DNA of 61,115 nucleotides, from positions 1-61,115 of the forward strand of contig JAZSFJ010000102.1 of NCBI GenBank assembly GCA_045532145.1, given 5' to 3'. The notes under the pieces were generated by a model, which worked only from the letters and a program-made list of their open reading frames with translations, was not told where the DNA came from and ran no database searches. A program made the translations under genes and the position numbers. The stretch is from Oscillospiraceae bacterium. GTDB taxonomy: Bacteria; Bacillota; Clostridia; Oscillospirales; Oscillospiraceae. The stretch's first letter is position 1. Each line of letters begins with the position of its first letter. Shown here one piece after another: positions 3,445 through 51,158 of the stretch.

Positions 3445-4197
3445 ATGGACAGTATAAAAACCGGTAATCTCATTGCAAAAACAAGAAAAGAGAAAGATAT
3501 GACTCAGCGCGCCCTTGCTGAGATGCTTCATATCAGTGACCGCACTGTGAGTAAATGGGAGCGAGGAGTGGGTTTTCCTGATGTGTCGATGCTGGAGCCT
3601 TTGGCAGATGTACTGGGCCTTACGGTAACGGAGTTGCTTCATGGTGAGTGTAATGAAATCCTGGGCGCTGACAACGAAGTGCGCTATGCGTTGAAGGTGA
3701 TAAGACAGTACCGAAGGGAGATGCTTAAAAGAAATATCCGTGATGTAGTGCTGGCAGTTTTGTGCATAGCTGTTCTTGGATTTTTCACCTTTGCCTTCGC
3801 TGAGCGGTGGGGCGCTTTCAGTGAGGATATTTATCTGGAGCTTGAAGCTGGAGTATATATAGACGGCCTACGCGTTGAGGACACGAAGGTAATCATTTAT
3901 GGTTCAAGGAACAAGCTCAGCAATGAGTTTAGCGGACGCCTCGCTATAGACTGGTTGGAAAAAACCTGCCGGGAGAAGACGAAGGCTCATATAGCTTGGA
4001 GCGAAAATGGCCAGAATATCGGCTATTATGGCTATGGGCAACTCGGCTTTGTGCCCCTCGACAACAATTGCTATTTCAGCTCCAATATGATGAGTTTTGC
4101 CATAGAAAACTCGGAGGAGGGCTGGGTTATTGCTACCGACGACTATCTGGCAGAGCTTATGGCGCTGGAGGGTTATTATCCCCTCATAGAACCGTGA
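3445..4197 (+). CDS. Membrane-anchored XRE-family (HTH_3) transcriptional regulator with an uncharacterised C-terminal domain
   Basis: MTQRALAEMLHISDRTVSKWERG helix-turn-helix, then one TM segment (VVLAVLCIAVLGFFTFAFA). Start at ATG 3445 with GGAAGGAGGG upstream; the track ORF starts at 3331. Confidence 0.8.
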   Translation: MDSIKTGNLIAKTRKEKDMTQRALAEMLHISDRTVSKWERGVGFPDVSMLEPLADVLGLTVTELLHGECNEILGADNEVRYALKVIRQYRREMLKRNIRDVVLAVLCIAVLGFFTFAFAERWGAFSEDIYLELEAGVYIDGLRVEDTKVIIYGSRNKLSNEFSGRLAIDWLEKTCREKTKAHIAWSENGQNIGYYGYGQLGFVPLDNNCYFSSNMMSFAIENSEEGWVIATDDYLAELMALEGYYPLIEP

Positions 4198-5227: not shown

Positions 5228-6115
5228 ATGAAAAGGGAAGAGATAAATATCCGCGACCCGTATGTGCTTTTGCACGGAGATACCTATTATCTCTACGGCA
5301 CCCGCAGCGAGAGCTGCTGGGGAGAGTGCGACGGCTTTGACTGCTATCATAGCTGCGACCTTGTTTCTTGGGAAGGACCGGTGGAGGTTTTCCACCGTCC
5401 TAAAGGCTTCTTTGCCGACAGGAACTACTGGGCCCCGGAGGTCTATTGCCATGATGGCAGCTTCTATATGCTCACCACCTTCGGCTGTGATGAGAGAAAA
5501 AAGGGAGTTTATCTTCTTCGTGCCAATAATCCTCTTGGCCCCTTTGAAGCCCTTGGTGACAAGCCTCTGACCCCTCCCGACTGGGCCTGCATAGACGGAA
5601 GTCTCTATTTCGACGGGGCGCAGGAGCCATGGCTCATTTTCTCCCATTCCTTTGAGGACGAGCCAAGGGGAGATATGTGTGCCGTGAGACTTAGTGCAGA
5701 CCTTTCAAAAGCCCTGTCAGAGCCCTGTTTGCTTTTCTCTGCTGCCGATGCTCCGTGGGCGCGGCCTGTGCCCTTTGCCAAGGCGGAGTTCGGTATGGAT
5801 GGCGATGTTTACTTCACCGACGGTCCCTGTATGCGAAAAATGGAGGACGGAAGCCTCATATGCCTTTGGGCCAGCTGGTCGGAGCGGGGCTACGCCGTAG
5901 GAGCTGCCCAGTCCAAAAGCGGCGACATCACCGGGCCTTGGAAGCATCTTCCCGAAAAGGTCTTCCCAGAAAACGGAGGCCACGGAATGCTCTTTGAGGA
6001 TAAGAGCGGCCAGCTTTTCTACACCCTCCATTATCCCAACGACAAATATATGGAGCGCCCCATTTTCCGCAGGGTGGAAATTAAAGATGATAGACTAATT
6101 CTTGCAGATAGATAA
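5228..6115 (+). CDS. Glycoside hydrolase family 43 (arabinofuranosidase/arabinanase-like)
   Basis: N-terminal IRDPYVL..GDTYYLYGT and NYWAPEV motifs typical of the GH43 five-bladed propeller. TAGGAGG RBS; first gene of the arabinose cluster. Confidence 0.75.
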   Translation: MKREEINIRDPYVLLHGDTYYLYGTRSESCWGECDGFDCYHSCDLVSWEGPVEVFHRPKGFFADRNYWAPEVYCHDGSFYMLTTFGCDERKKGVYLLRANNPLGPFEALGDKPLTPPDWACIDGSLYFDGAQEPWLIFSHSFEDEPRGDMCAVRLSADLSKALSEPCLLFSAADAPWARPVPFAKAEFGMDGDVYFTDGPCMRKMEDGSLICLWASWSERGYAVGAAQSKSGDITGPWKHLPEKVFPENGGHGMLFEDKSGQLFYTLHYPNDKYMERPIFRRVEIKDDRLILADR

Positions 6116-30411: not shown

Positions 30412-30663
30412 TTATTTTCCCTTGTATTTTACTCTGGTGGCCTCTCCGCCCCGTAGATGACGCTCTGCCTTGTTCTGCTCCAGGACGGCTCTTGCCTGTA
30501 TGTAAAGGGCTTTGTTCAATATTTTGAGCCTCTCGGTGAGGTCCTTGTGTACAGTGGATTTGCTCACGCCGAACTTTTTAGCCGCGGAACGGACCGTGGC
30601 TCCGTTTTCCACAATGTACTGGGCCAGCAGCACGCAGCGCTGCTCTATGTCGGTATTCACATT
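30412..30663 (-). CDS. spoIIID: Stage III sporulation transcriptional regulator SpoIIID
   Basis: FGVSKSTVHKDLTERL and HLRGGEATR motifs are nearly identical to B. subtilis SpoIIID. Start probably at GTG 30663 (GGAG 8 nt upstream, alignment with B. subtilis); the track start is 30669. Confidence 0.92.
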   Translation of the reverse strand, partial: NVNTDIEQRCVLLAQYIVENGATVRSAAKKFGVSKSTVHKDLTERLKILNKALYIQARAVLEQNKAERHLRGGEATRVKYKGK

Positions 30664-30690
30664 GACCACTCCAAACTGTTTTGCTAATGG

Positions 30691-30719
30691 AGTATATGCG
30701 AATAGCCCTTAAACTATGA
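30691..30719 (-). promoter_or_regulatory. SigE-like promoter candidate for spoIIID (TCATAGT-N14-CATATACT)
   Basis: Compared by eye with the B. subtilis SigE consensus as I recall it (-35 xxATAxx, 14-nt spacer, -10 CATACAxT). The -10 matches 7 of 8 positions. Confidence 0.4.
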
Positions 30720-38294: not shown

Positions 38295-40036
38295 TATTCC
38301 CCAACTCCTTCCTGCTGAGAATAATAGATCTCCTGATACACGGCATTATTTGCCATGAGCTCATCGTGGGTGCCCAAACCCACGATGTGGTCGTCGTCAA
38401 GGACCACAATCTTATCCGCATAGCGGACGGAGGAGATACGCTGGGCTATGATGATAACGGTGGTATCCTTCAGATTTTCGCTGAAGGACTGTCTTATGGC
38501 GGCCTCGGTGGCGCTGTCCACGGCAGAGGTGGAGTCGTCCAAAATGAGTATGCCGGGCTTGCGAAGCATGGCTCGGGCAATGCAAAGACGCTGCTTCTGG
38601 CCGCCGGATACGTTGACGCCGCCCTGCTCGATATAGGTGTCGAAGCCGTCGGGGAAGCTCATAATAAAGTCATATGCCTGAGCGTTTTTGGCGGCGGTGA
38701 TGATGTCCTCCTCGCTGGCATTGGGGTCGCCCCAGAGAAGGTTTTCACGGATGGTGCCGGAGAAGAGAACATTGTTCTGCAATACCATGCCTATGCGCTC
38801 TCGCAGCTTGGCAATGGGATAATCCCGAACATCCATGCCGTCTACCAGTACCTGTCCGCCGGTGACGTCATAAAAACGGGGGATAAGGTTAACAAGGGAG
38901 CTCTTGCCGGTGCCGGTGCCGCCTACAATGGCCACAAACTCGCCGGGCTGGATTTCGAGGTCAATATGGCTGAGCACATCGTCGCCGGTGCCGGTGGCTA
39001 TGTACTTAAAGCTCACATCCTTAAACTCAACGCTGCCCACGGCTTCGGGCAGAGTGCGGGAATGGGCATCCTCGCTGTCGCGGATGTCGGGCACTGTATC
39101 CAGCACTTCGTTTATACGCTCGGCGCAGGCTCTGGCTCTTGTGAGCTGCAGGAGAGTGAAGGCCATCATCATAACGCTTATGAGGATGTTGAAAATATAG
39201 GTGATGAAGGCGTAAAGGTCGCCGTAAATCATGCCGCCGTCTATGACCATTTTACCGCCCACCCAGAGGGAGAGGACTATGGCCAGATTGAAGGCTATCA
39301 TCATGATGGGGTTCATAAAGACAACCTTGGTTACGGCAGATATAAAGGAACGGGTGAGCTCGTCGTTGGCCTTCTGGAACTTGGTCTTTTCGTAGCCCTC
39401 GCGGACAAAGGCCTTTACCACACGGATGGCAATGAGATTTTCCTGAATGGAGTCGTTGAGACCGTCTATCTTCTTCTGGCAGATGCCAAAGAGCTTGTGG
39501 CAGGTGTGCATGAGGAGGCCAACGGCCAGCGCCATGCAGGGTACTATACCAACCAGGATAAGGGTGAGCTTGGCGTTGAGACGGAAGCAGATAATAAGGG
39601 CTGCTGCCAGCATAACGGGGGCACGCACCACCATTCTCAGACCCATGTTAACCAGCATCTGAATATTATTTACGTCGTTGGTCATACGGGTAATAAGGGA
39701 GGCGGAGGAAAAGCGGTCTATGTCCGCAAAGGAAAAGTCCTGCACCTTGTCGAACATGGCTTTGCGGAGATTGGCTCCGAAGCCCTGGCTGCCTGAGCTG
39801 GCGAAGCGAGCGCTTCCAACGCCGGCGGCCATTGCTATGAGGCAGATGACCACCATCTGGGCACCTATGCGGAGGATGTAGGATATTCCACCATCGCCTT
39901 CTATGCCTGTATTGATAATGTCTGCCATGAGAGTGGGCAGCATGAGCTCTCCCAAAACTTCCACAATAACCAGCAGCGGGGCCAGCAGAGCGGCCTTCTC
40001 ATAGCCACGGATATGTTTCATGAGTTTTCGTAACAT
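38294..40036 (-). CDS. ABC exporter fused permease/ATPase, heterodimer subunit with a degenerate catalytic site
   Basis: 580 aa. Walker A GGTGTGKSS, signature VSGGQKQ, Walker B ILILDDSTS (Asp replaces the catalytic Glu), H-loop position IAQRISS (Gln replaces His). Confidence 0.88.
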   Translation of the reverse strand: MLRKLMKHIRGYEKAALLAPLLVIVEVLGELMLPTLMADIINTGIEGDGGISYILRIGAQMVVICLIAMAAGVGSARFASSGSQGFGANLRKAMFDKVQDFSFADIDRFSSASLITRMTNDVNNIQMLVNMGLRMVVRAPVMLAAALIICFRLNAKLTLILVGIVPCMALAVGLLMHTCHKLFGICQKKIDGLNDSIQENLIAIRVVKAFVREGYEKTKFQKANDELTRSFISAVTKVVFMNPIMMIAFNLAIVLSLWVGGKMVIDGGMIYGDLYAFITYIFNILISVMMMAFTLLQLTRARACAERINEVLDTVPDIRDSEDAHSRTLPEAVGSVEFKDVSFKYIATGTGDDVLSHIDLEIQPGEFVAIVGGTGTGKSSLVNLIPRFYDVTGGQVLVDGMDVRDYPIAKLRERIGMVLQNNVLFSGTIRENLLWGDPNASEEDIITAAKNAQAYDFIMSFPDGFDTYIEQGGVNVSGGQKQRLCIARAMLRKPGILILDDSTSAVDSATEAAIRQSFSENLKDTTVIIIAQRISSVRYADKIVVLDDDHIVGLGTHDELMANNAVYQEIYYSQQEGVGE

Positions 40037-40113
40037 TGAAGCTTATCTCCTGTCAAATAGATATCGAATGTACCTATTTTACTTATTCAAATAATTATGT
40101 CAAGAAAATGGTG

Positions 40114-40142
40114 GAATAATTTCAAGAAAATTCACATTATCT
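40114..40142 (+). promoter_or_regulatory. Weak SigE-like promoter candidate upstream of spoIIIAA (GAATAAT-N14-CATTATCT)
   Basis: The -35 and the spacing fit the recalled SigE consensus. The -10 matches only 5 of 8 positions. Confidence 0.25.
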
Positions 40143-40164
40143 TCCTGTGAAAGGCGGTGAGGAC

Positions 40165-41022
40165 ATGCTTCGTGTTCAGGAAAGGCTGCATCAGCTGCTG
40201 CCTCGTGATATGCTTGTATCTGCGCTGGGGAGAGGACTGGAGCGGGCTGAGGAAATAAGGCTAAGAATGGGTTACCCTGCCTCTTTGCTTGTTGAGGGCA
40301 GGGAAGAGAGCCTGGGCGGCAAAGAGGTGGATGAGCAGGATATAGCCTTTGTGCTTGACAGGGCCAGCCGCTCTTCTCTCCACTCCGTACAGTCACAACT
40401 GGGACAGGGTTTCATCCAGGCCGGTTTCGGCATAAGGCTTGGTGTATGCGGCTGCTTTGGTGAAACCGGCATAGGCTCTCTGCGGGATGTATCCTCTCTT
40501 GCTGTCCGTCTGCCTCATGAACTCAGAGGAATAGGAGCCGGGGCTATGGAGCGGCTGAAGCCCTTTGATTGCTCCGTGCTTATCATATCCCCGCCGGGGG
40601 GAGGAAAGACCAGCTTTCTCAGGGAACTCATTCGATGCGCATCCCTCTCCGGCCAGAGGGTAAGCCTCTGCGACGAGAGGGGAGAGGTGGCTGCCATGTG
40701 GCAGGGACGAAGCTCCTTTGACCTGGGGCCAATGACCGATGTTTTAAGTGGTACGGAAAAGAGAAAGGGGATAATGATGCTTCTCAGGGCCATGAATCCA
40801 CGGATAATAGCTCTCGATGAAATAAGCGCTGAGGCCGATGGCCCTGCCCTTGAACAGGCCATATGCTGCGGAGCGCATATTTTTGCCACGGCCCACGGAG
40901 CGGGTGTGGAGGAGATAAAAAGGCGGCGGCACTATAGAAGACTTATCGATGATGGCCTTTTCCAAAAGGCGGTTATTATTTCGGGAAGGGATAAAAGACA
41001 TTATCAGGTGGTGGATATATGA
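40165..41022 (+). CDS. spoIIIAA: Stage III sporulation protein AA (secretion-type ATPase)
   Basis: Walker A ISPPGGGKTSFLRE, Walker B-like IIALDEIS. Start at ATG 40165 (GGTGAGG RBS). Followed by spoIIIAB with an ATGA overlap. Confidence 0.85.
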   Translation: MLRVQERLHQLLPRDMLVSALGRGLERAEEIRLRMGYPASLLVEGREESLGGKEVDEQDIAFVLDRASRSSLHSVQSQLGQGFIQAGFGIRLGVCGCFGETGIGSLRDVSSLAVRLPHELRGIGAGAMERLKPFDCSVLIISPPGGGKTSFLRELIRCASLSGQRVSLCDERGEVAAMWQGRSSFDLGPMTDVLSGTEKRKGIMMLLRAMNPRIIALDEISAEADGPALEQAICCGAHIFATAHGAGVEEIKRRRHYRRLIDDGLFQKAVIISGRDKRHYQVVDI

Positions 41023-41510
41023 TGGTGAAGATAATAGGGGCTGCTCTCCTTGTGGCCTGCGGAGGGGCTCTTGGACTTGGGCGGCTTCATGCGGCGGGAG
41101 GGAGGATAGCTCTTTTGAATATGCTGGACAGGGCTCTTTCCATGATAGAAGCGGAAATTAGCCTATGCTCCCGTCCTCTGCCAGATGTTTTTGAGCAGTT
41201 GAGGAGAGAGACAGATTGTGAATTATTTGCCGCCCTTTCCGAAAGCTGCGCCTATTTGAGCGCCGGGGATGCCTGGCGGCTTTGGGCCGAAGGACTTGAG
41301 CTGCCCCCGGAGGGGAAAGTGGTTATTGGCTCACTTGGAGAGGTGCTGGGCCGCTACGACGCCTCCCGTCAGTCCGGAGAGATAAGGGCAGTCAGAGAGA
41401 GGCTTAAAGGGATGCAGGAAAATCTGCAAAGGGAAAAGGAAACAAAGCAGCGCCATTACCCCGTTCTGGGAGCCTGTCTTGCGGGTATTGCGGCAATGCT
41501 GATGATATGA
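41019..41510 (+). CDS. spoIIIAB: Stage III sporulation protein AB
   Basis: 163 aa with N- and C-terminal TM segments. Position and size are typical of SpoIIIAB. Confidence 0.75.
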   Translation: MMVKIIGAALLVACGGALGLGRLHAAGGRIALLNMLDRALSMIEAEISLCSRPLPDVFEQLRRETDCELFAALSESCAYLSAGDAWRLWAEGLELPPEGKVVIGSLGEVLGRYDASRQSGEIRAVRERLKGMQENLQREKETKQRHYPVLGACLAGIAAMLMI

Positions 41511-41518
41511 TGAAAAAA

Positions 41519-41543
41519 CCACGGTATCACTTTGATACCGTGG
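41519..41543. terminator. Hairpin terminator between spoIIIAB and the convergent GT2::GtrA gene
   Basis: Perfect 10-bp stem CCACGGTATC-acttt-GATACCGTGG. It has a T6 run on the minus-strand side and an AT-rich tail on the plus-strand side. Confidence 0.7.
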
Positions 41544-41552
41544 TCGATTATT

Positions 41553-42665
41553 TTATTTATCCCGGAACACCCATTTTTTCTGGATGCGGTAGGATATGAA
41601 GAAAAGGCAGGTGTCCACAATTGCCTTCATCACAGTAAGCACCCAGGATGCGCTGGCGGTAAAGAGTATTCCCAGAAGCCAGACAAGGCCGGCGGAAACA
41701 CAAAGCTGCAAAACGCAGAGTATGTAATATCTGAGCATTGTGCCGCCATATTTTCCGGTGGAGCCAAATACAACGCTTTTGTTCAGGTTGAAATTAACAA
41801 AGCTGGAAATGGCTCTGGCCAGTGCGGTGCACACCACTATGGCCGCATTTCCAAGGAGGCCGCCAAGGAGCATATGCAGCAGCCAGAATGCCAGCAGATC
41901 AATTCCTGCAGAGGCGCAGGAGGAAATAACATACTTGATAAAACGGAAAAGCCGTTTGAAAACATGGGCCAGTATGAGCTTGTAGATACGTGCGGAGTCT
42001 CTGACAGGGCGGAAATGTGAGCCGGAATTGTTGTCCTCGTAGACAGTCTCTATCTCCACCTCGGTGTAGGCTATCTTTGCGGAATGAAACTCCAAAAGCA
42101 TATTGGTCTCGTACTCATAGCGCTCACCGCTTATCTCCAGAAGTCTTTCAAAGTGATTGCGGGTGGCAGCTCTCAGTCCCGTCTGGGTGTCGCAGAGAAC
42201 TATGCCGCAGAGAATGCGGAAAACGCCGGAGGTGATTTTGTTGCCGCTTCTGCTTTTGGGCGGTATATCGGGAAGGTTGAAGTTACGGCAGCCCAGCACC
42301 AGAGTGTCGGGGTGGGCATGGGAGGCTTCGGCACAAGCGAGGATGTCTTTGGCCAGATGCTGTCCGTCTCCGTCTGCGGTGACTGCGCCTTCAATGTCAG
42401 GGCGGTTTTCCAGAAGATAGGCAAAGGCGGTTTTCAGGCCCGCTCCCTTGCCTTTGTTGACTTCGTGGCGCAGCAGAGTTACCTGGGGCAGAGCAGAAAC
42501 CTTATGAAAGGGCTCCTGATACTCCGCACCGCTGCCGTCGTCAACAAGGATGATGCTGCCAAAACCTGCATCCACAAGACCCTCCACAACGCTGCAGAGC
42601 TTGTCAGTGGGGTTCAGGGAGGGCAGTATCACTGCGTATTTTTCAATGTCAAAGCTTTTGATCAT
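41553..42665 (-). CDS. Glycosyltransferase family 2 fused to a GtrA-like membrane domain
   Basis: AVILPSLNP...IILVDDGSG and TADGDGQH GT2 motifs. The C-terminal approx. 130 aa has 4 TM segments of GtrA type (FIKYVISSCASAGIDLLAFWLL). Confidence 0.8.
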   Translation of the reverse strand: MIKSFDIEKYAVILPSLNPTDKLCSVVEGLVDAGFGSIILVDDGSGAEYQEPFHKVSALPQVTLLRHEVNKGKGAGLKTAFAYLLENRPDIEGAVTADGDGQHLAKDILACAEASHAHPDTLVLGCRNFNLPDIPPKSRSGNKITSGVFRILCGIVLCDTQTGLRAATRNHFERLLEISGERYEYETNMLLEFHSAKIAYTEVEIETVYEDNNSGSHFRPVRDSARIYKLILAHVFKRLFRFIKYVISSCASAGIDLLAFWLLHMLLGGLLGNAAIVVCTALARAISSFVNFNLNKSVVFGSTGKYGGTMLRYYILCVLQLCVSAGLVWLLGILFTASASWVLTVMKAIVDTCLFFISYRIQKKWVFRDK

Positions 42666-42684
42666 AATAATGCCTCATATGGTT

Positions 42685-43989
42685 TTACTGGAGTGCGGCG
42701 CTCATGGCAGCAACCCGGTAGCGGCCGTCGTGCTTTTCTACCAGTATAAGATTGCCGTCTTTAACTTCGAGCTCATCGGGACCCAGGGTGTAGCTTATGT
42801 CATAGGCGATGGAGCAGATATATCTTTCATCGCCCAGGGGGATAAGGTCAAAGTAGGAAATGCTGTTGTACTCAAGACCGCTTGTGGTGGCCCAGGCGAT
42901 ATTTTCAATGGTGTTTGCAATAAGGGTATAAAGCTCACTGCCGGGAAGGAGATAGTTGGAGAGAGCGGCGAAGTTGCCTTCGGCGTTGTGATCCTTGTTG
43001 GCGGAGAAGTTTACATATGCATAGATGAAGCCCTCAAGGAACTCAGAGAGATTGCCTTCAATTTCCTCGCTTGCTCCGGGAATATAGCAGTATCCAACAG
43101 GCAGCTCTATGGCCTCCACGAGCTCCTCGTCCTGAACTACCCGGATATCGGGCTCGCCGAAAAGACCCTGGCACTCATAGCGCAAAATAGAGCTTTCGCC
43201 CTCAAGACCCAGATCAAGGGGAGAGCAGTAATTTCCTGTTATCTCCTGACCGTTAACATAGACCTCTGCGCCCTCAAGGGCCAGGAAGGAAAACTCCTGA
43301 GTAGGCTCGGGAAGAAATTCCACATGGTTTGCGGAAACGCTGGCGGCCTCAAGCTCATTGCCATCGGCGTCGAAGGCCTTTATATCTGCAGGGCCCATCA
43401 TGCCTTTGATTTCGTATATCTCTGCTGCGGGAGGAATATCGAAATCGTGCTCAAGGCTGAGACTGATGCTGCCCACGTCGGTGATGTAGTCTGCGCTTAC
43501 GGCCACGCCGTTTATCTCGGCAGTGCAGCCGGTGGGTACGGAGAGACGGATGTCAGCTCCACCGGGCATGGTGAATTCCCAGTCGGATACAACCCAGCTT
43601 TTAAGGCCGAAGCCCACATTGTTGCTGCTGCGGAGGAGCAGTGTGCATATCTTGGAAGAGCCGAGGCGCACATCGTAGCTCTGCTCGGTTTTGCTGTCGC
43701 TTGCATTGGAGCGCCAGCTGATCTCGGCGTTCTCATCAATGCCGAAGTCGGAGAGCATGGCTCCGGGGAGGGTGAACTCGTTGAAGCCGGCGTCTATAAG
43801 TTCCTGAAGTCCATCCAGCCAGAAGTCGTGGTCACGGGAGGCCATAAATTCCTCCACGGTGTTGTCAGGACGGGAGGCTTCGTAGGACTTGAGGAAGGAG
43901 CGCAGAACCAGAAGGCCCGCTCCGATGATAAGAATAAGAATAAGGCAGTAAATAAGGAAGGCGCGGAGGAAGATATTTTTCTTTTTCAT
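42685..43989 (-). CDS. Uncharacterised single-pass membrane protein (434 aa, acidic extracytoplasmic region)
   Basis: N-terminal signal anchor IFLRAFLIYCLILILIIGAGLLVL. I recognise no family motif. Its start overlaps the upstream stop (TAATG). Confidence 0.6.
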   Translation of the reverse strand: MKKKNIFLRAFLIYCLILILIIGAGLLVLRSFLKSYEASRPDNTVEEFMASRDHDFWLDGLQELIDAGFNEFTLPGAMLSDFGIDENAEISWRSNASDSKTEQSYDVRLGSSKICTLLLRSSNNVGFGLKSWVVSDWEFTMPGGADIRLSVPTGCTAEINGVAVSADYITDVGSISLSLEHDFDIPPAAEIYEIKGMMGPADIKAFDADGNELEAASVSANHVEFLPEPTQEFSFLALEGAEVYVNGQEITGNYCSPLDLGLEGESSILRYECQGLFGEPDIRVVQDEELVEAIELPVGYCYIPGASEEIEGNLSEFLEGFIYAYVNFSANKDHNAEGNFAALSNYLLPGSELYTLIANTIENIAWATTSGLEYNSISYFDLIPLGDERYICSIAYDISYTLGPDELEVKDGNLILVEKHDGRYRVAAMSAALQ

Positions 43990-45200
43990 TATTCTGCCTC
44001 CTTATCAAGAACTACAATGCCCGTGGGCAGGGGACGCTGGCCCACAAGGGAGGAGCTGATGTTCAGAAATTCGCCATTATAAAGCATGGAGGAGGAGCTG
44101 CCGCCGTCCAGATTAAGGGCGTTCACAGCGCCGTAGGAGAGCATAACATCGGCCACATCCTCATAGGTGGCACCCATGGAGCCCACCTGTCTGCCGTTGA
44201 TAACAAGAAGGAGTATGGCGCCGTCGCTTCTCTGGCCGATAGCGGTGCGGGGGTTGAGACCGCTGCTGAGACCGTCGCACTTTTCGCCGTTGACAACGAG
44301 AACAGGACCGAAGGAAACGGCCCACTCGGCATTAAGAGCCATAGCCTCGTTGCCGGTCATATTGCCCACATGGAGAATACCGTCATAGTCAATTACAGCG
44401 GTGGCTGCTCTGGTGTTGGCTCCGTAAAGCAGCTTGCCCTCGTGGATAACTACGCCCAGGGGGATGCCGCCGTTTCCGGTGCCGTTGGGGTCGTCAAAGC
44501 CGCCGGCGTTGGTGCCGCCAACGCCTCCGTAGGAATCAATCATGTCAGGAAGAAGCTGTCCCGCGGCGCCAAGCTGATTGGATACGCCTACAATGACACG
44601 CTCAGGGTCGGAAACAATCATCAGCTTGCCCTTGAAAGTGGCTCCGGAGACATCCAGTATCTCAAGCTCCGCGGTCTCGCCGTCCTCACCGCTGCCCTCT
44701 TCGTCGGACTTGGAGGCAATGGTGATGAGGCTTGTGTCCACATTTTCAAGAATGTCGTCAGGCTTGTTGGCTTCTTCAATAAGGGCAATTTCCTCTTCGC
44801 TGAGGAATATGCCGGCTACAAAGCCTGCGGCGCTGGTCTCGCGGAGGGAGAGAACGAAAAGGTCTCTTGCGCTCTCGCTGGGACCTTTGCTCATTATGTA
44901 AACCACACCCAAAGCTCCGGCAAGAATGATTATAACGGTCGCAAGCACAAAGCTGAGCACACGGGCGATAATGCCGAAAACACCCACTTTTTTGCGCTTT
45001 TTTGGCGCCTCAGTCTCTTCAACAGGGAAAACCTCGGGCTCTTCATGGGGCTGGGGAGCATATTCATAGTGGACGGGCTCGGCTGTGGTGGGGAACTGGG
45101 CCTCGGCGGCACGTTCTATCTCCGCCAACTCCTCGGGGGAGAGGATGCCGGAGAGGTCTATATCCTCCCGATCCAGAAGGGAAATATCGTTTTTATCCAT
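43989..45200 (-). CDS. Phosphodiester glycosidase (NAGPA/DUF2233-like) family membrane protein
   Basis: TM anchor VGVFGIIARVLSFVLATVIIILAG. C-terminal GAVNALNLDGGSSSSMLYNGEF and PRTAIGQRSDG motifs are typical of the family. Confidence 0.7.
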   Translation of the reverse strand: MDKNDISLLDREDIDLSGILSPEELAEIERAAEAQFPTTAEPVHYEYAPQPHEEPEVFPVEETEAPKKRKKVGVFGIIARVLSFVLATVIIILAGALGVVYIMSKGPSESARDLFVLSLRETSAAGFVAGIFLSEEEIALIEEANKPDDILENVDTSLITIASKSDEEGSGEDGETAELEILDVSGATFKGKLMIVSDPERVIVGVSNQLGAAGQLLPDMIDSYGGVGGTNAGGFDDPNGTGNGGIPLGVVIHEGKLLYGANTRAATAVIDYDGILHVGNMTGNEAMALNAEWAVSFGPVLVVNGEKCDGLSSGLNPRTAIGQRSDGAILLLVINGRQVGSMGATYEDVADVMLSYGAVNALNLDGGSSSSMLYNGEFLNISSSLVGQRPLPTGIVVLDKEAE

Positions 45201-45280
45201 ATATTTTTTTACTCATTTCATCTGATATTTTCTGACAGAGTGTGTGGGCATACTACCCCAGTTTCTCTATCGCACCCTAC

Positions 45281-45289
45281 ATTATAACA
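45281..45289 (-). promoter_or_regulatory. Extended -10 promoter candidate (TGTTATAAT) for the minus-strand cassette
   Basis: Consensus TATAAT with an upstream TG on the minus strand, about 80 nt upstream of ATG 45200. Confidence 0.35.
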
Positions 45290-45409
45290 TAGTATTTCAA
45301 AATTACCAGATTAAATTGAGCAAAGCGTCGAAGTATTTTGGAAAAGGGAGGACATAAAAGCCACTGCAGGCGAATAGATATTGCCAAGGCCAACAAAGGA
45401 GAGTTAATT

Positions 45410-45604
45410 ATGGACGTTGAACTTATTTTCAAAATAGCAGCTGTGGGCATAATGGTGGCGGTGCTGAATATCCTGCTTTCCCGCTCGGGAAGGGACGAGC
45501 AGGCATTAATGGTGACTATTGCGGGGCTTGTCTGTGTGCTTGTGATAGTGGTGCAGGAGATAAGCGCCCTTTTCTCCCTGATCAAGGACCTATTCTCACT
45601 CTGA
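45410..45604 (+). CDS. spoIIIAC: Stage III sporulation protein AC
   Basis: 64 aa, two TM. IFKIAAVGIMVAVLNILLSRSGRDEQ resembles B. subtilis SpoIIIAC. Start at ATG 45410 (AAAGGAGAG RBS). Confidence 0.85.
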   Translation: MDVELIFKIAAVGIMVAVLNILLSRSGRDEQALMVTIAGLVCVLVIVVQEISALFSLIKDLFSL

Positions 45605-45605
45605 A

Positions 45606-45992
45606 ATGGAGATACTACTGAAAACTGCGGCGGCTGCAATAATGGCCTGCGCCGTGTGTCTGCTGCTGAAAAAGAACAGCCCGGAGATGGGACTGCCTGT
45701 CTCTATTCTCGTCTGCGTCGGGGGACTTGCCCTTGGCGCCGGCTTGCTGAGTCCCATAATGGAGCTTCTTAGCTCCGCAAGGAAGCTTAGCGGACTTTCA
45801 GACGCGCTGTTTTATCCCGTGGTCAAAAGCCTTGGTATAGGAGTCTGCGCAAAGCTTTCCGCAGACATATGCCGGGACAGCGGACAGGCTGCCATTGGGG
45901 GAACTCTTGAAACACTGGGCGCAGTCTGCGCTTTGTATGCCTCTCTGCCTCTCATGGAAACTCTTCTGGACATGCTGGAGGAGCTTTTATGA
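45606..45992 (+). CDS. spoIIIAD: Stage III sporulation protein AD
   Basis: 128 aa. CRDSGQAAIGGTLETLG matches the conserved (K/R)D(A/S)GQ.AI motif of SpoIIIAD. Confidence 0.85.
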   Translation: MEILLKTAAAAIMACAVCLLLKKNSPEMGLPVSILVCVGGLALGAGLLSPIMELLSSARKLSGLSDALFYPVVKSLGIGVCAKLSADICRDSGQAAIGGTLETLGAVCALYASLPLMETLLDMLEELL

Positions 45993-47050
45993 GAAAACTA
46001 TTCCTAATTCTCTTTTTTACTGTGGCTCTGAGCATCCCTGTTAATGCTGCCTATGGAAGTGATGAGGTGGAAAGCTCGCTGACTGGCTCGGCATCTGAGA
46101 TAATGGGAGATCTCAGCCTTGATACATTCACAGCCGAGGGTCTCATGGACAGACTCTGGAACTACATAGCCTCTCATATCCGATCCGAGCTTCGGGCGGT
46201 GCTGCGGCCTGTGACTGCGGTGGTGGCGGCGTCTGTGCTGTGCTCTGTGGGAGACGGTTTGCAATTGAAAAAGGAAATAGATTATGTTAACCTCGCCGGA
46301 TGTCTAGCCATTGCTGTTGCGGCGCTGGGGGATGTGAACTCTGTGGCCTCCATGGGAAGACAGGCCCTTGAGGATATACAGGAATTTTCCCGTGTGCTGC
46401 TGCCGGTGCTGGCTTCAGCTTCCGCCGGGGCGGGGGCTGTGGGCTCCTCCGCTGCAAAATACGCAGCAACGGCTCTTTTTATGGATGTGCTTATAGCCCT
46501 TGCAGGAAATGTTTTGCTGCCAATGCTTGGGGCCTATACTGCTGCCCTTACCGCCTCCGCTGCCACGGGAGACGGTCGCCTCAAGGGGGCGGTGAAGCTG
46601 ATGAAGTGGCTGAGTAAAATAAGCCTCACGGCCCTTGTGTCCCTGTTCACATTTTATCTTGGTATCTCGGGAATAGCGGCCTCGGGGGCTGACGCTGCTG
46701 CGTCCAAAGCTGCCAAGGCCATAATTAGCTCCTTTGTTCCCGTGGTGGGTAAGATGGTGGCCGGGACCTCGGATACCCTTGCCGCCGGGGCCATGCTGAT
46801 AAGAAACTCAGTTGGAGTCTTCGGACTGGGTGCGGTTCTGGCACTGTGCGCCGCGCCTTTTCTGGCCATCGGCCTGCGCTACCTTCTTTTCAAAGCTGCG
46901 GCAGCGGTGGTGTGCCTTGTTTCCGGGGACAGAATAGGCTCTTTTGTGGAGGGGCTGGGCAGCGTTTATGGAATGCTGCTGGGCCTTGTAGGTACGGGAG
47001 CGGTTTTCATGTTTATTTCTATTCTCTCTTTGATAAGGACGGTGGTTTAG
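45989..47050 (+). CDS. spoIIIAE: Stage III sporulation protein AE
   Basis: 353 aa with a signal peptide and a polytopic Ala/Gly-rich membrane domain. ATGA overlap with spoIIIAD. Confidence 0.85.
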   Translation: MRKLFLILFFTVALSIPVNAAYGSDEVESSLTGSASEIMGDLSLDTFTAEGLMDRLWNYIASHIRSELRAVLRPVTAVVAASVLCSVGDGLQLKKEIDYVNLAGCLAIAVAALGDVNSVASMGRQALEDIQEFSRVLLPVLASASAGAGAVGSSAAKYAATALFMDVLIALAGNVLLPMLGAYTAALTASAATGDGRLKGAVKLMKWLSKISLTALVSLFTFYLGISGIAASGADAAASKAAKAIISSFVPVVGKMVAGTSDTLAAGAMLIRNSVGVFGLGAVLALCAAPFLAIGLRYLLFKAAAAVVCLVSGDRIGSFVEGLGSVYGMLLGLVGTGAVFMFISILSLIRTVV

Positions 47051-47052
47051 AT

Positions 47053-47538
47053 TTGACAGAAATTCTGGGTAAATGGGTGCTGGGCCTTTCCGGAGCCGCA
47101 GTTTTTTGCGCTGCAATGCTTGAACTGTGTCCCAAAGGTCCTGTTAAAAATGTGGTAAAAACCCTCTGCGGTATGGTCATGGCTGTGGCTCTTGTGTCTC
47201 CTCTTGTGTATTCGGAAATGCCATCATATTCAATGAATCTGGCCAAATACCGAGCCATAGGGGAGAAGGCTGCCTCCGCGGGACTGGAGGAAACGAACTC
47301 CCTTTCAAGGACAATCATAGAAGAGGAATGCCGCGCATATATATTGGACAAAGGGAAGGCCCTTGAAGCGGATATTACTGATGCTGCAGTAGGGCTGAAG
47401 TGGAGCGGGGAGGGCTTCTGGTATCCCGTTGAATGTGAGATAGAAGGAAAATACCACTCCGGCCTTGCCGCCGCTATAAGCGGGGAGCTTGGCATAGGTG
47501 AGGAGAAGCAGAAATGGACGGAATATGAAGGTGCATGA
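47053..47538 (+). CDS. spoIIIAF: Stage III sporulation protein AF
   Basis: Position between AE and AG, with an N-terminal double TM. The start is uncertain: TTG 47053 lies 2 nt after the AE stop, and the track ORF 46846.. runs into AE. Confidence 0.65.
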   Translation: MTEILGKWVLGLSGAAVFCAAMLELCPKGPVKNVVKTLCGMVMAVALVSPLVYSEMPSYSMNLAKYRAIGEKAASAGLEETNSLSRTIIEEECRAYILDKGKALEADITDAAVGLKWSGEGFWYPVECEIEGKYHSGLAAAISGELGIGEEKQKWTEYEGA

Positions 47539-47896
47539 TCTCAGCGGCCTTTGGAAGGCTCTGGCAAAAAACAAATATGTGCTGATGGTTGTGGCTTTGG
47601 CTCTGGTGCTTATGCTGCTGCCATCGGGCTCTTCGAAGGGACTTGCTGCCTCGGCGGGGCAGGGAGCGGAGCTTGAATCCTCGGGAATAGCGCTGGACAC
47701 GGAGTGTGCAAGAATAGGAGAATTCCTCAGCCAGATAGAGGGGGTGGGGGAGGCCAGGGTGCTCCTCAGCGCCGAGGGCGCAGTTATAGTTTGTCAGGGA
47801 GCTGATACAAGCTCCGTGCGCCTTTGTGTGACAAACGCAGTCTCGGCCTACACGGGCCTTGGCAGCGACAAGATACGCGTAATCAAAATGAAATGA
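47525..47896 (+). CDS. spoIIIAG: Stage III sporulation protein AG
   Basis: N-terminal TM, then IEGVGEARVLLS..GAVIVCQGAD, typical of the SpoIIIAG ring-building motif region. Start at ATG 47525. Confidence 0.8.
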   Translation: MKVHDLSGLWKALAKNKYVLMVVALALVLMLLPSGSSKGLAASAGQGAELESSGIALDTECARIGEFLSQIEGVGEARVLLSAEGAVIVCQGADTSSVRLCVTNAVSAYTGLGSDKIRVIKMK

Positions 47897-47912
47897 TATT
47901 CAGGAGGCGTTT

Positions 47913-48482
47913 TTGAAAGTGAAGAAGAATCTCAAGAGGAACATAGTAATGTGCGCGGTGCTGCTTTTTGTCTGCGCATCGGTTTATCTGAACTGGAGCT
48001 ACAATAACCGCTGGGGCAAGGCCAACGAGGCTATGGTGGAGGCGGAGGATGAGGCAATGGAGCAGGCGGATGAGCTTTATGAGCAGGCCCTGGCCGAGGA
48101 GGAAGCGAAGAGCGAGACTGTAAGCTCCTATTTTGCCTCCGCCCGTCTCACCCGCCAGCAGTCCCGTGACGAGGCCCTGAGCCTTCTGGAGTCTGCCGCA
48201 AGTTCGGAGTCTGCCAGTCAGGAAACCATAGACTCGGCTATGGAGTCCATAGCCGCCATGGCCACATGGAGCATGCAGGAGACCCAGATAGAAAACCTCC
48301 TTCTGGCCCGCGACTTTGATGACTGCGTGGTTTATATGAGCGCCGAGGGTGTCACCGTTGCCGTGCCTGCACCGGAAGAGGGCCTCAGCGAGGCCACCGT
48401 AGCCCGCATTACGGACACCATTACAAGCGAGACTGACTTCGCCGCCAGCCAGCTGAAAATTATCGAAGTGAAAGATAATTGA
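47913..48482 (+). CDS. spoIIIAH: Stage III sporulation protein AH
   Basis: N-terminal TM, an acidic linker, and a C-terminal YscJ/FliF-like region ETQIENLLLARDFDDCVVYMSAEGVTVAV. AGGAGG RBS; TTG or GTG start. Confidence 0.8.
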   Translation: MKVKKNLKRNIVMCAVLLFVCASVYLNWSYNNRWGKANEAMVEAEDEAMEQADELYEQALAEEEAKSETVSSYFASARLTRQQSRDEALSLLESAASSESASQETIDSAMESIAAMATWSMQETQIENLLLARDFDDCVVYMSAEGVTVAVPAPEEGLSEATVARITDTITSETDFAASQLKIIEVKDN

Positions 48483-48495
48483 ATAGTCATAAAGA

Positions 48496-48530
48496 AAGCG
48501 CCGATTGGTTTTGTGTACCAATCGGCGCTT
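48496..48530. terminator. Bidirectional rho-independent terminator
   Basis: Perfect 14-bp stem AAGCGCCGATTGGT-tttgtgt-ACCAATCGGCGCTT between convergent spoIIIAH and the DUF2812 gene. Confidence 0.8.
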
Positions 48531-48561
48531 AATTTCGTGTCCTCCGTAGTGCGCGACACCC

Positions 48562-49995
48562 TTAGGTGCCCAATTTTCCCGCGATGACGGCGATCTGCTC
48601 CTCGGTGGGGGGCTCCTTCAAGTTCAACACAACTATTCGGTCACCCCAGCGGATGAGGTAGTTATCCATTGGCTGTTTACTTCCTCCCATGTAGTCTGTT
48701 CCGAATTCCTGATATACCTCATCGGCCTTCCAAAGTCCGGCGTCGACAGGCCGGTATTCGTATCTTCCATCGAAAATCGCGTAGTCTTTTTCGTCAAGGG
48801 CATCCTGAAAAATACGTTCAGTCAAAAAACAGAGCTTCACATCAATGATGCTGTAATATAGATCGGGCAGATCACTGCCCACAATGTTCCGCCGAAGGGT
48901 CGCATGGCATCGGTCAAAGCTCATAGCTATAGATTCCTGATGCTCCCTGTAGTTGGAATATAAAGGTCCATTGAACCCTATATCTGTGTCGTAAATATCC
49001 TCGGCATAAAGGGGGAGGGCGTGATGATAAAAGGTGTAGTTGAAATTCTCATATTCATACTCTTCCTCGGGGGCAAGAACAAAGTTTTCTGCCTTAGCCT
49101 CGAAAAAGTCCGCTTCATGAAGTTTGCTTACAGTCCATGTGAGGATGCCTATCATAGCAAAGGAAAGGATAACGCAGAAAATAATGGTGACGGTGACATT
49201 GGTGCCCGCGTCCACCTTCTTACGCTTCATAAGGGCGCTTATCCCGTGGACAAGTATCACTATGGCGAAGTAATATCCCATGCATATCAGGAGTGCCGCG
49301 GAGATGAAACTGTTTCTCTCGGCGAGGATAAAGAGCAAAAATGCTGCGATGAGCAAATAGAGCAGTATAAACATCAAAACTCTGTTGCCACGGGTGGGGA
49401 TGAAGCTGCCGTCCCGACGGGCCGCTTTCAGAGCCCTTGACCGCCAGATAAAATAGCTTCCGAGCTCCGCTGCTCCTATGATAAATACAATGACAGCGCC
49501 GAAAATGGCAAAGAGACTCAGGTTGGTTTTGTAAAAGGCGAGTGGGTTTTTGATGAGGTCATAAATGCGGGGAAGGCCGTTGAGCAGCGCCGCAACGAGA
49601 AAAAGAATATAGCAGGGAAGCTGCTGTTTTTTCATGCCCTTATGTATGCTCTCTATCTCGAGAAGGGCGTCCGTTTCTATGGGGATAGGATTCTCGGCCT
49701 CGTTATAGAATATCTGCATTTGGGCGGCCTCGGCGCAGAACTTCCAGCCGCTGTGCTCGCAAAATTCGCGAAAATGCAGCAGAGACTCGGGAGCCTGCGG
49801 CTCAAAGGAGCTGGTCTTTGAGAAGTAGCTAACGGCAAAGTGTATTCGTCGGGGCTCTACGGGTCGAAAGTGCCAGAAAAATTTCGTGATTTTGTCCAGC
49901 ATCCAGCCCCTGAGGGCCATTTTTTCAAGATAACAGCTTATGCCAGTGCGGTCATGGAAAGTGAACTGGGCAATGACACGTTTATGCTTCCTCAT
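48562..49995 (-). CDS. DUF2812 domain-containing membrane protein
   Basis: N-terminus FHDRTGISCYLEKMALRGWMLDKI is typical of DUF2812, followed by multiple TM segments. Its start overlaps the padR stop (1 nt). Confidence 0.7.
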   Translation of the reverse strand: MRKHKRVIAQFTFHDRTGISCYLEKMALRGWMLDKITKFFWHFRPVEPRRIHFAVSYFSKTSSFEPQAPESLLHFREFCEHSGWKFCAEAAQMQIFYNEAENPIPIETDALLEIESIHKGMKKQQLPCYILFLVAALLNGLPRIYDLIKNPLAFYKTNLSLFAIFGAVIVFIIGAAELGSYFIWRSRALKAARRDGSFIPTRGNRVLMFILLYLLIAAFLLFILAERNSFISAALLICMGYYFAIVILVHGISALMKRKKVDAGTNVTVTIIFCVILSFAMIGILTWTVSKLHEADFFEAKAENFVLAPEEEYEYENFNYTFYHHALPLYAEDIYDTDIGFNGPLYSNYREHQESIAMSFDRCHATLRRNIVGSDLPDLYYSIIDVKLCFLTERIFQDALDEKDYAIFDGRYEYRPVDAGLWKADEVYQEFGTDYMGGSKQPMDNYLIRWGDRIVVLNLKEPPTEEQIAVIAGKLGT

Positions 49996-50315
49996 TATTT
50001 ATCCTCCTTTCCTATAACTTTCATGTAGTCATTAGCCTGTTTTTGGAGGCGTTCATATTCCTTTTTGAGAGCCTCCCGGCCAAGGTCTGTGATAATGTAG
50101 CTGCGTTTGCGGCCAACTGAGCTTGTTTCCCGAATCATGCCACAGGAAACAAACTGCTCCAGAAGGTTATAGAGTGTGCCGGGGCCTACGCTTACCCGGC
50201 CTTCGGTCATAAGGGGAACCCGGTCCATAATGTCCATACCACAGCACTCGCTGCATAGACAGAGAAGGATATAGAACATCTGCTCTGTAAGGGTATGAAA
50301 CTTCGCTCTCGGCAT
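49995..50315 (-). CDS. PadR-family transcriptional regulator
   Basis: 106 aa winged helix: FYILLCLCSECCGMDIMDRV...GTLYNLLEQFVSCGMI...RKRSYIITDLGREAL. Confidence 0.85.
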   Translation of the reverse strand: MPRAKFHTLTEQMFYILLCLCSECCGMDIMDRVPLMTEGRVSVGPGTLYNLLEQFVSCGMIRETSSVGRKRSYIITDLGREALKKEYERLQKQANDYMKVIGKEDK

Positions 50316-50798: not shown

Positions 50799-51158
50799 AT
50801 GCCCGATAATTACATCAGCATTTCCGCCGAAAAGGGAAGCATCAATGTTTCCGAGGAGGTTATCGCCATAATCGCAGGCTCTGCCATTTCCGAGACCGAG
50901 GGAGTTGCCGGCCTTTCCAACACCGTTGGCAGCGAGATTTATGACTTCATCGGCAGAAAGTCTGTTACCAAAGGAATAAAGGTCTCTTTTGAGGAGAGCA
51001 CCATTGTTATTGAGGCCACCATTATGGTACGCTTCGGCACCACCATCGCCACCATCGCAGAGAAGGTGCAGTCCGCCGTTGCCGGTGCCGTTGAGTCTAT
51101 GACCGGCATTAGCCCCGTGGTCAATGTCCGCGTGGCAGGCATTTCTTTTGACAAGTAA
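50799..51158 (+). CDS. Asp23/Gls24-family envelope stress (alkaline shock) protein
   Basis: GSINVSEEVIAIIAGSAISETEGVAGL...GIKV...V.VRV.GI pattern. Same position as B. subtilis yqhY, downstream of spoIIIA. Confidence 0.85.
   Translation: MPDNYISISAEKGSINVSEEVIAIIAGSAISETEGVAGLSNTVGSEIYDFIGRKSVTKGIKVSFEESTIVIEATIMVRFGTTIATIAEKVQSAVAGAVESMTGISPVVNVRVAGISFDK

Follow-up and report, generated by a model that had tools for sequence, protein, structure and literature searches.

How does a spoIIIA operon remain expressible when it has been cut in two by genes of opposite orientation, and do the intervening genes take part in sporulation or are they simply tolerated there? The question is raised by positions 40,165 to 48,482 of contig JAZSFJ010000102.1 (GenBank assembly GCA_045532145.1) from an Oscillospiraceae bacterium; the whole stretch of DNA analysed, positions 1 to 61,115 of the forward strand, is referred to below as the window. 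The SpoIIIA-SpoIIQ complex is the 'feeding tube' of sporulating cells, and in Bacillus subtilis and Clostridioides difficile sigma-E promoters lie before spoIIIAA and before spoIIIAG. The operon is contiguous in both species and is assumed to be so in comparative surveys (PMC3789822; PMC7924749; bioRxiv 10.1101/2022.02.25.481979), its contiguity being used to call orthologues and to predict spore formers (PMC7924749). A preliminary description of the locus, made from the sequence by eye, took contiguity to be the described state. The literature searched yielded no report of a split spoIIIA, and in two comparative studies of sporulation genes spoIIIA figures as a single conserved operon, with no split mentioned. 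Our analysis suggests that a housekeeping operon for envelope glycans probably inserted here once and was tolerated, that a new sigma-E-type promoter made up for the break, and that the linkage to spoIIIA is a matter of descent.

Gene order of the interrupted locus

Homologues of all eight genes, spoIIIAA to spoIIIAH, are present in the canonical order and lie on the plus strand, with three minus-strand genes (hereafter the cassette) between the second and the third:

40165 to 41022, plus strand: spoIIIAA, encoding the ATPase (PF19568, 1.2e-53; TIGR02858, 1.8e-51)
41019 to 41510, plus strand: spoIIIAB, overlapping spoIIIAA by 4 nt (PF09548, 5.1e-24)
41517 to 41545, both strands: bidirectional terminator hairpin with a 13-pair stem, between the convergent spoIIIAB and glycosyltransferase genes
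41553 to 42665, minus strand: cassette gene 3, a family 2 glycosyltransferase (GT2) fused to a GtrA-like membrane domain (PF00535, PF04138)
42685 to 43989, minus strand: cassette gene 2, a single-pass membrane protein of 434 residues in which an NTF2-like, a beta-sandwich and a second NTF2-like domain follow one another (from an AlphaFold2 model and its PDB matches)
43989 to 45200, minus strand: cassette gene 1, a membrane-anchored NAGPA/DUF2233 phosphodiester glycosidase (PF09992, 2.3e-37)
45410 to 45604, plus strand: spoIIIAC (TIGR02848, 81.3 bits, above cutoff; PF06686)
45606 to 45992, plus strand: spoIIIAD (PF06686, 7.5e-19; TIGR02849, weak)
45989 to 47050, plus strand: spoIIIAE (PF09546, 1.4e-46)
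47053 to 47538, plus strand: spoIIIAF, with a TTG start, assigned mainly by position (TIGR02896, 8e-4 only)
47525 to 47896, plus strand: spoIIIAG, short at 123 residues, assigned mainly by position and size (TIGR02830, 9e-6, C-terminal part only)
47913 to 48482, plus strand: spoIIIAH (PF12685, 3.6e-36)

The locus is thus not a single contiguous, co-directional unit, 3.7 kb of minus-strand genes and a terminator separating spoIIIAB from spoIIIAC. This is the split by an opposite-strand cassette that the preliminary description had reported, and the open reading frame map and profile searches agree with it, including the identity of the two frames at 40165-41510 as SpoIIIAA and SpoIIIAB (PF19568 and PF09548). 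Six of the spoIIIA genes (AA, AB, AC, AD, AE and AH) are clear from their Pfam and NCBIfam matches. The profile matches of AF and AG are weak and their position is conserved across loci; a conserved gene of 161 residues sits between AE and AG in every locus and is taken as spoIIIAF. Profile searches of the PDB with AF and AG returned no significant SpoIIIAF or SpoIIIAG match. SpoIIIAG has 123 residues in the window and in all relatives, and its match covers no more than the final 40 positions of the SpoIIIAG profile; a large part of the protein as it is in B. subtilis thus appears to be absent. Within the cassette, the stop of the NAGPA gene overlaps the start of the gene for the 434-residue protein by 1 nt.

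Distribution and origin of the insertion

Comparison of the AB/AC junction among relatives, a survey that the preliminary description had proposed, finds the operon split in nine lineages: the window, L001 (an Oscillospiraceae metagenome-assembled genome from buffalo colon), L009/L010, L011/L012, L016, L019, L020, L021 and L022. The order is identical in all nine, and their 434-residue proteins are 46-87% identical to that of the window: AA-AB, then on the opposite strand the GT2-GtrA, 434-residue and NAGPA genes with NAGPA transcribed first, then AC-AH. The flanks are syntenic too, with two ABC-transporter genes, with or without a MarR gene, divergent from AA on one side, and asp23-nusB-xseA after AH on the other.

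Three further loci, L023, L024 and L002, have contiguous operons. L023, which encodes the nearest SpoIIIAA outside the split clade (P0080, 51% identical), amounts to an empty site: it has the flanks of the split loci, MarR-ABC-ABC to the left and Asp23-NusB-XseA to the right, around an uninterrupted AA-AH with an AB-AC gap of 17 nt. Since the same flanks here enclose a contiguous operon, the split is the derived state and results from a single ancestral insertion at the AB-AC junction.

An assembly chimera, or a mobile island that one contig has recently acquired by horizontal transfer, would also give an unusual gene order, and nothing beyond that order speaks for either. Against both, the same arrangement occurs in independent assemblies from NCBI, JGI, ENA and Logan. 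The G+C content of the cassette (0.47-0.58) equals that of its flanks, no integrase or transposase is present, and terminal repeats around the cassette occur at chance level only. Across the split loci, moreover, identities are 67-86% for the glycosyltransferase, 66-88% for NAGPA and 46-82% for the 434-residue protein, beside 54-71% for SpoIIIAA and 37-59% for SpoIIIAB; in their divergence the proteins of the cassette have kept pace with those of spoIIIA. The cassette therefore does not show the marks of a mobile island, its pattern in the nine lineages fits vertical descent, and the chimera or recent island, extremely improbable in our estimate, is already refuted by the comparative data.

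The 434-residue protein gives the widest view of where the module occurs. A search of 5.8 billion proteins found only about 40 clusters of it, and all homologues of at least 46% identity with a readable context lie in the split-spoIIIA arrangement. Those of at most 43% identity (L008, L013, L014) belong to a module located elsewhere, in which a gene of the PIG-L family diverges from NAGPA and the 434-residue gene follows NAGPA; neither spoIIIA genes nor a GT2-GtrA gene are nearby, and in L014 the module adjoins a CotH gene. Among the split loci, L016 and L009 carry an extra PIG-L-family gene of 432-444 codons between NAGPA and AC, which reads the same way as spoIIIAC. Neither a homologue nor a remnant of PIG-L was found in the window or in the other loci that do not carry the gene; PIG-L was later lost from the spoIIIA position in the window's subgroup. 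Of two further scans, one of a genome collection with SpoIIIAA yielded two useful loci, the five others being distant Dehalococcoidia ATPases, and one of metagenomes with the alignment of the 434-residue family gave only two short contigs, which were not used.

The neighbourhood has also changed on its other side. A PadR regulator and DUF2812 membrane-protein pair (48562-50315, minus strand) lies between spoIIIAH and asp23 (50799-51158) in the window. It is also present in L021 and absent from L011, L016, L019, L020 and L022, and is a second, younger insertion.

Termination after spoIIIAB

The preliminary description had spoIIIAA-AB end at a hairpin, and the 13-pair bidirectional stem located at 41517-41545, with a T-run on the minus strand, bears this out. 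A strong hairpin lies at the junction of spoIIIAB and the glycosyltransferase gene in every split locus, with energies of -21 to -33 kcal/mol in the simple cases. That these hairpins occur everywhere yet are not homologous in sequence argues that termination itself is under selection. In L001 a 256-nt insert (1106-1361) separates spoIIIAB from the glycosyltransferase gene; a duplicate of the terminator hairpin bounds this insert, which is dense in further hairpins.

A candidate new promoter upstream of spoIIIAC

Two-block position weight matrices for sigma-E, sigma-K, sigma-F and sigma-G were trained on C. difficile promoters whose transcription starts have been mapped (Saujet et al. 2013, PMC3789822, Tables S6 and S7). 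Three candidate sigma-E-type promoters in the spoIIIA locus concern us here:

40114 to 40142, plus strand: P1, candidate sigma-E-type promoter of spoIIIAA-AB, GAATAAT-N14-CACATTATCT
45352 to 45381, plus strand: P_AC, candidate sigma-E-type promoter of spoIIIAC-AH, identified by matrix and conservation
47315 to 47343, plus strand: P2, internal sigma-E-type promoter inside spoIIIAF, TCATAGA-N13-GCATATATA

Over all 61 kb of the window, the highest sigma-E score (12.3) falls 22 nt upstream of spoIIID, and the second highest (12.1) is that of P2, 181 nt upstream of spoIIIAG. Ranking these two promoters first and second indicates that the matrix transfers to this genome. The spoIIID frame (30412-30669, minus strand, 85 residues) matches TIGR02844 with 114 bits, and the element upstream of it (30691-30719, minus strand; TCATAGT-N13-GCATATACT) has, for this organism, the look of a classical sigma-E promoter. 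The P2 site hardly varies among the nine split loci, L023 and L024, and its position is that of the known spoIIIAG promoter in C. difficile and B. subtilis (PMC3789822); P2 would accordingly be placed as the internal sigma-E promoter ahead of spoIIIAG. For P1, a block GGAATAATTT...CAnAATATA is conserved in seven loci. The conserved site, GAATAAT-N14-CAnAATAT, is 21-33 nt from the spoIIIAA ATG, and its orthologues in L020, L009 and L019 score 8.8-13.4 with the sigma-E matrix. A TTGACA-16-TAAAAT promoter of the divergent ABC genes adjoins P1.

The element that bears on the split is P_AC. It consists of ACATAAA (45352-45358), a 14-nt spacer and AATAGATAT (45373-45381), and lies 29 nt before the spoIIIAC ATG. 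With a kmATAww -35, a CATAnAnT-like -10, a spacing in the range of 13-15 nt and a suitable distance from the gene it has the features of a sigma-E-type promoter, and its -10 resembles that of the mapped C. difficile spoIIIAA sigma-E promoter, AAATAGAAT. The sigma-E score of 8.6 ranks 28th among 122,170 positions of the window, and about 0.05 matches of this strength are expected by chance per 209 nt, the length of the intergenic region. When the region upstream of spoIIIAC is aligned for seven loci, mean column identity is 38% and three conserved blocks stand out. The consensus of P_AC is kmATAww-N14-AATAGAnAT, with the ATA of the -35, the AATA of the -10 and the spacing constant throughout. 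The orthologous site is the best sigma-E match in eight of the nine split loci (8.0-11.3); in L016 and L009, where it lies between PIG-L and AC, it is near consensus (TCATATT or TTATATT-N15-CATAGAAT). Upstream of AC in the contiguous outgroups L023, L024 and L002 there is nothing comparable, sigma-E scores being 3.9 at most. P_AC thus co-occurs with the split, as expected for the compensatory gain of a promoter. The preliminary description rightly reasoned that AC-AH would need a promoter of their own. It had seen no convincing SigE-type match in 45201-45409; this has to be revised, P_AC lying in that interval with a conserved sequence and fixed spacing.

Could the element belong to the forespore instead? 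It might be a sigma-F or sigma-G promoter, or a regulator site, with AC-AH expressed in the other compartment or from another start. The GCATA form of the -35 also fits the GnATA of sigma-F/G, the L019 element scores 11.7 with the sigma-G matrix and 9.3 with the sigma-E one, and all four matrices give the L021 element much the same score. Yet sigma-E gives the best or joint-best score in seven of the nine loci, the L016 and L009 elements score 11.3 and 10.3 for sigma-E and below 6 for sigma-F/G, and the -10 matches the mapped C. difficile promoter cited above. SpoIIIA proteins are, furthermore, mother-cell products in every species studied (PMC3789822). We regard a forespore promoter or regulator site as quite unlikely, and a sigma-E-type promoter remains our reading of P_AC.

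Two other candidates were set aside. A sigma-E match at 45447-45474 (plus strand, 10.7; GCATAAT-N12-TGAATATCCT) lies in coding sequence, downstream of the spoIIIAC start. Candidates found by eye at 45221-45257 (GATATT...CATACTAC) have the wrong spacing, 19 nt, and their CATAC is part of the leader motif described below.

Some sequence details hint at how P_AC arose. The 9-mer GAATGGGAC, found beside the spoIIIAB stop in the contiguous L023 (9377-9393), recurs right after the -10 (CATAGAAT) of the spoIIIAC promoter in L016 (about 4000-4030) and in L009, so that the -10 may have evolved from the old AB-AC junction. Read as a target-site duplication, the two copies are suggestive only, and no such claim is made.

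In L019 a stretch of about 270 nt (5287-5560) is inserted between P_AC and spoIIIAC. A 78%-identical copy occurs at an unrelated position in L021 (88-344), and a search of Rfam with the L019 insertion gave no match; the repeat is a small element resembling a miniature inverted-repeat transposable element, with hairpins.

Promoter and leader of the cassette

Two conserved elements were located on the cassette strand of the divergent intergenic region:

45281 to 45309, minus strand: cassette promoter of sigma-A type, CTGGTA plus an extended -10
45245 to 45260, minus strand: leader motif TGGGCATACTACCCCA, at about +20 to +36 of the cassette leader

The promoter comprises CTGGTA (45309-45304), a 17-nt spacer and the extended -10 TGTTATAAT (45289-45281); on the plus strand, 45280-45289 read CATTATAACA, whose reverse complement TGTTATAATG is the sigma-A extended -10 of the cassette. 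The preliminary description had pointed to an opposite-strand extended -10, and it is both real and invariant across the loci compared: TGyTATAAT and CTGG, ATGG or GTGG vary little or not at all among the loci that were aligned or scanned. L008 and L013, whose module is not in spoIIIA, have the same promoter, and this promoter predates the move into spoIIIA. It lies about 60 bp from P_AC.

On the cassette strand no match to the sigma-E, K, F or G matrices is co-located across loci. A sigma-G match at 45319-45290 (10.3) was rejected, its -10 not being conserved in the other loci. The leader motif TGGGCATACTACCCCA is conserved in the window, L001, L019, L021, L011 and L020 and absent from the loci that keep PIG-L, and may be an operator or other regulator-binding site. 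An RNA hairpin in the leader has four invariant pairs and no covariation, and is unsupported. Rfam gave nothing credible for 39900-48700 of the window, a SNORD44 hit at E = 0.17 being of chance level.

PIG-L has a conserved promoter of its own, TTTACA-N17-TGnTAAAAT. The divergent PIG-L and NAGPA promoters overlap (L016 5480-5666, L009 5524-5714, L008 5816-5945, L013 2906-3035), that of PIG-L lying inside the NAGPA leader, where it coincides with a conserved inverted repeat, GCCGTCTTT...AAAGACGGC.

Proteins encoded by the cassette

From its domain content the cassette looks like an extracytoplasmic glycan-modification module acting on a cell-wall or teichoic-acid-type polymer. The preliminary description had assigned all three genes to envelope glycans, which holds for two of them; the middle gene encodes a membrane-anchored double-NTF2 protein with no known activity.

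The GT2-GtrA protein (370 residues) matches PF00535 at 2.9e-7 and, C-terminal to the GT2 domain, PF04138 at 6.1e-9. It is of the type of the polyprenyl-phosphate sugar synthases, though its best NCBIfam matches, AglJ (59 bits) and PpgS (51 bits), are both below cutoff, and sequence searches found no relative of solved structure. The cassette and flanks of every locus were free of a GT-C transferase of the GtrC or YfhO kind, which may be encoded elsewhere in the genome. The NAGPA protein matches PF09992 with 129 bits, against a gathering cutoff of 25; for bacterial NAGPA in sporulation, the literature offered only mentions of domain architecture.

The 434-residue protein matches no Pfam or NCBIfam family. 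In its AlphaFold2 model, a confident one (mean predicted local distance difference test score 89.6), a membrane helix at the N-terminus leads into an NTF2-like domain; beta-sandwich domains come next, and a second NTF2-like domain forms the C-terminal part. In the PDB it is best matched by TcpC (3ub1), the NTF2 domain of RsgI9, the N-terminal domain of PBP5 and the VirB8-like PrgL, with Foldseek E-values of 5e-5 to TcpC and 4e-3 to PrgL and whole-chain template modelling scores of about 0.2. Profile searches place the protein in a large unnamed family, with 1301 representatives at E <=1e-3 and 112 at <=1e-30, a few distant members of which match the TcaA NTF2-like domain PF22819.

Tolerated insertion or recruitment to sporulation?

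The history we consider probable is as follows. In the common ancestor of the clade, which consists of uncultured Oscillospiraceae from gut and rumen, a self-contained envelope-glycan module would have inserted exactly between spoIIIAB and spoIIIAC. It would have comprised the NAGPA gene, the translationally coupled double-NTF2 gene, the GT2-GtrA gene and, initially, a divergent gene for a PIG-L-family deacetylase, and have retained a sigma-A-type extended -10 promoter of its own. Separate transcription units would have resulted from this break in the sigma-E operon. P1 would now drive spoIIIAA-AB, ending at the bidirectional terminator shared with the convergent cassette. The newly arisen P_AC, 29 nt upstream of spoIIIAC, would drive AC-AH, and the ancestral internal P2 in spoIIIAF would still boost AG-AH. 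The cassette itself would most likely be expressed as a housekeeping operon for modification of a cell-wall or teichoic-acid-type glycan. What is observed are the gene identities, the split shared by the clade, the empty site in the outgroup, and the conserved motifs of promoter type together with the hairpins; the sigma factor for each motif, the timing of expression and the biochemical role of the cassette we infer.

The contrasting possibility is that the cassette has been recruited to sporulation and modifies a glycan of the forespore envelope, the cortex or the spore surface, for instance by taking off or putting on phosphodiester-linked N-acetylglucosamine (GlcNAc); its position would then be selectively kept and its expression co-regulated with that of AC-AH through the shared 209-bp divergent region. 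The cassette does lie between AB and AC in all nine lineages examined, its proteins are under purifying selection, its promoter and P_AC are close neighbours, the operator-like leader motif is conserved and specific to the window's subgroup, and the L014 module stands beside a CotH gene. Against this, the cassette and PIG-L promoters are of sigma-A type and are conserved in relatives in which they are unlinked to spoIIIA, and the cassette strand is without a conserved sigma-E, K, F or G-type site. In L008, L013 and L014 the module is away from spoIIIA altogether. Since the flanking genes are as syntenic as the cassette, its linkage to spoIIIA does not rise above background: retention alone is no sign of a functional link, and descent explains it. 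Recruitment is accordingly an unlikely explanation in our view.

In its strongest form, recruitment would make the NAGPA, double-NTF2 and GT2-GtrA proteins, with or without PIG-L, an unrecognised glycan-editing system of sporulation, whose fixation is explained by co-function with the SpoIIIA-SpoIIQ channel. Its targets would be GlcNAc-phosphodiester-linked polymers around the forespore, in the septal or intermembrane space, and the double-NTF2 protein would be a channel scaffold like VirB8 or TcpC. We hold this to be improbable.

Several observations sit less comfortably with a tolerated insertion repaired by a sigma-E promoter. The cassette has been kept in place over substantial divergence, and its context was checked for only 10 of the approximately 36 family clusters at >=46% identity. 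A sigma-A promoter can be active in sporulating cells, and one of this type is compatible with sporulation expression or a sporulation role. In the window's subgroup the -10 of P_AC starts with A, as do several mapped C. difficile sigma-E promoters, where the canonical base is C. L022 has a degenerate form of the element; that of L019 gets its higher score from the sigma-G matrix, as noted above, and is separated from spoIIIAC by the insertion of about 270 nt. The window's own P1 site scores only 6.1 with the sigma-E matrix. More generally, the assignments of sigma factors rest on conservation and on matrices from C. difficile, a member of another family with an AT-rich genome, and should be read as probable ones.

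Between the two readings offered by the preliminary description, a neutral insertion is therefore the one favoured, and for a sporulation-linked module no supporting feature emerged. That description had named, as findings that would remove a functional link, a lineage-sporadic, vegetatively expressed cassette together with a conserved independent SigE promoter for AC-AH. At the level of sequence this is largely what is seen: the insertion is lineage-restricted, the cassette promoter appears to be of housekeeping type, and a conserved, independent candidate SigE promoter precedes AC-AH.

The arrangement has some wider implications. It implies that transcription of the ATPase/AB module can be uncoupled from that of the AC-AH membrane module, and that an essential developmental operon can tolerate an unrelated housekeeping operon within it. 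Set beside their empty-site relatives, the split loci offer a clean natural example of the birth of a promoter repairing a break, and the clade is a defined set of genomes in which to ask whether the dosage of AA/AB must match that of AC-AH. The practical relevance is for synteny-based annotation: pipelines that use spoIIIA synteny, and scans for sporulation signatures, would mis-score these Oscillospiraceae. The cassette also draws attention to an uncharacterised pair of NAGPA and NTF2 proteins in Firmicutes. For sporulation specialists the interest of the locus is moderate.

Comparison with known systems

GtrA, GtrB and GtrC form a three-component system of extracytoplasmic glycosylation that acts on O-antigen, teichoic acids or arabinogalactan. 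Cassette gene 3 resembles the GtrB/CsbB/PpgS and GtrA/GtcA systems in its N-terminal GT2 domain and its GtrA-like four-helix membrane domain. It differs in fusing both functions in one 370-residue protein; unlike the GtrA/GtrB/GtrC systems, the cassette comes without a GT-C transferase, and the family scores of the fused protein are all below the curated cutoffs.

The NAGPA protein resembles the NAGPA uncovering enzyme and DUF2233 proteins in its C-terminal 170 residues, which match PF09992 and the sequences of 6pku and 3ohg. Unlike these, it is membrane-anchored, has an N-terminal extension of about 220 residues and is translationally coupled to the 434-residue partner. The latter shares an N-terminal membrane helix and extracytoplasmic NTF2-like domains with TcpC (of pCW3 conjugation), PrgL and Staphylococcus aureus TcaA, the similarity being limited to the NTF2 modules. 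Its context is not one of conjugation, and its beta-sandwich middle and its pairing with NAGPA are without a described counterpart.

With the spoIIIA loci of B. subtilis and of C. difficile the window shares the same eight genes in the same relative order, a candidate sigma-E-type motif before AA, a strongly conserved one inside AF ahead of AG, and the downstream synteny with asp23-nusB-xseA. It differs from them in that 3.7 kb of genes on the opposite strand part AB from AC, in the terminator at which AA-AB end, and in the extra sigma-E-type promoter predicted for AC-AH. Rather than a new kind of system, the split is a modest, though real, variation in the gene order of a well-known locus, accompanied by the gain of a promoter.

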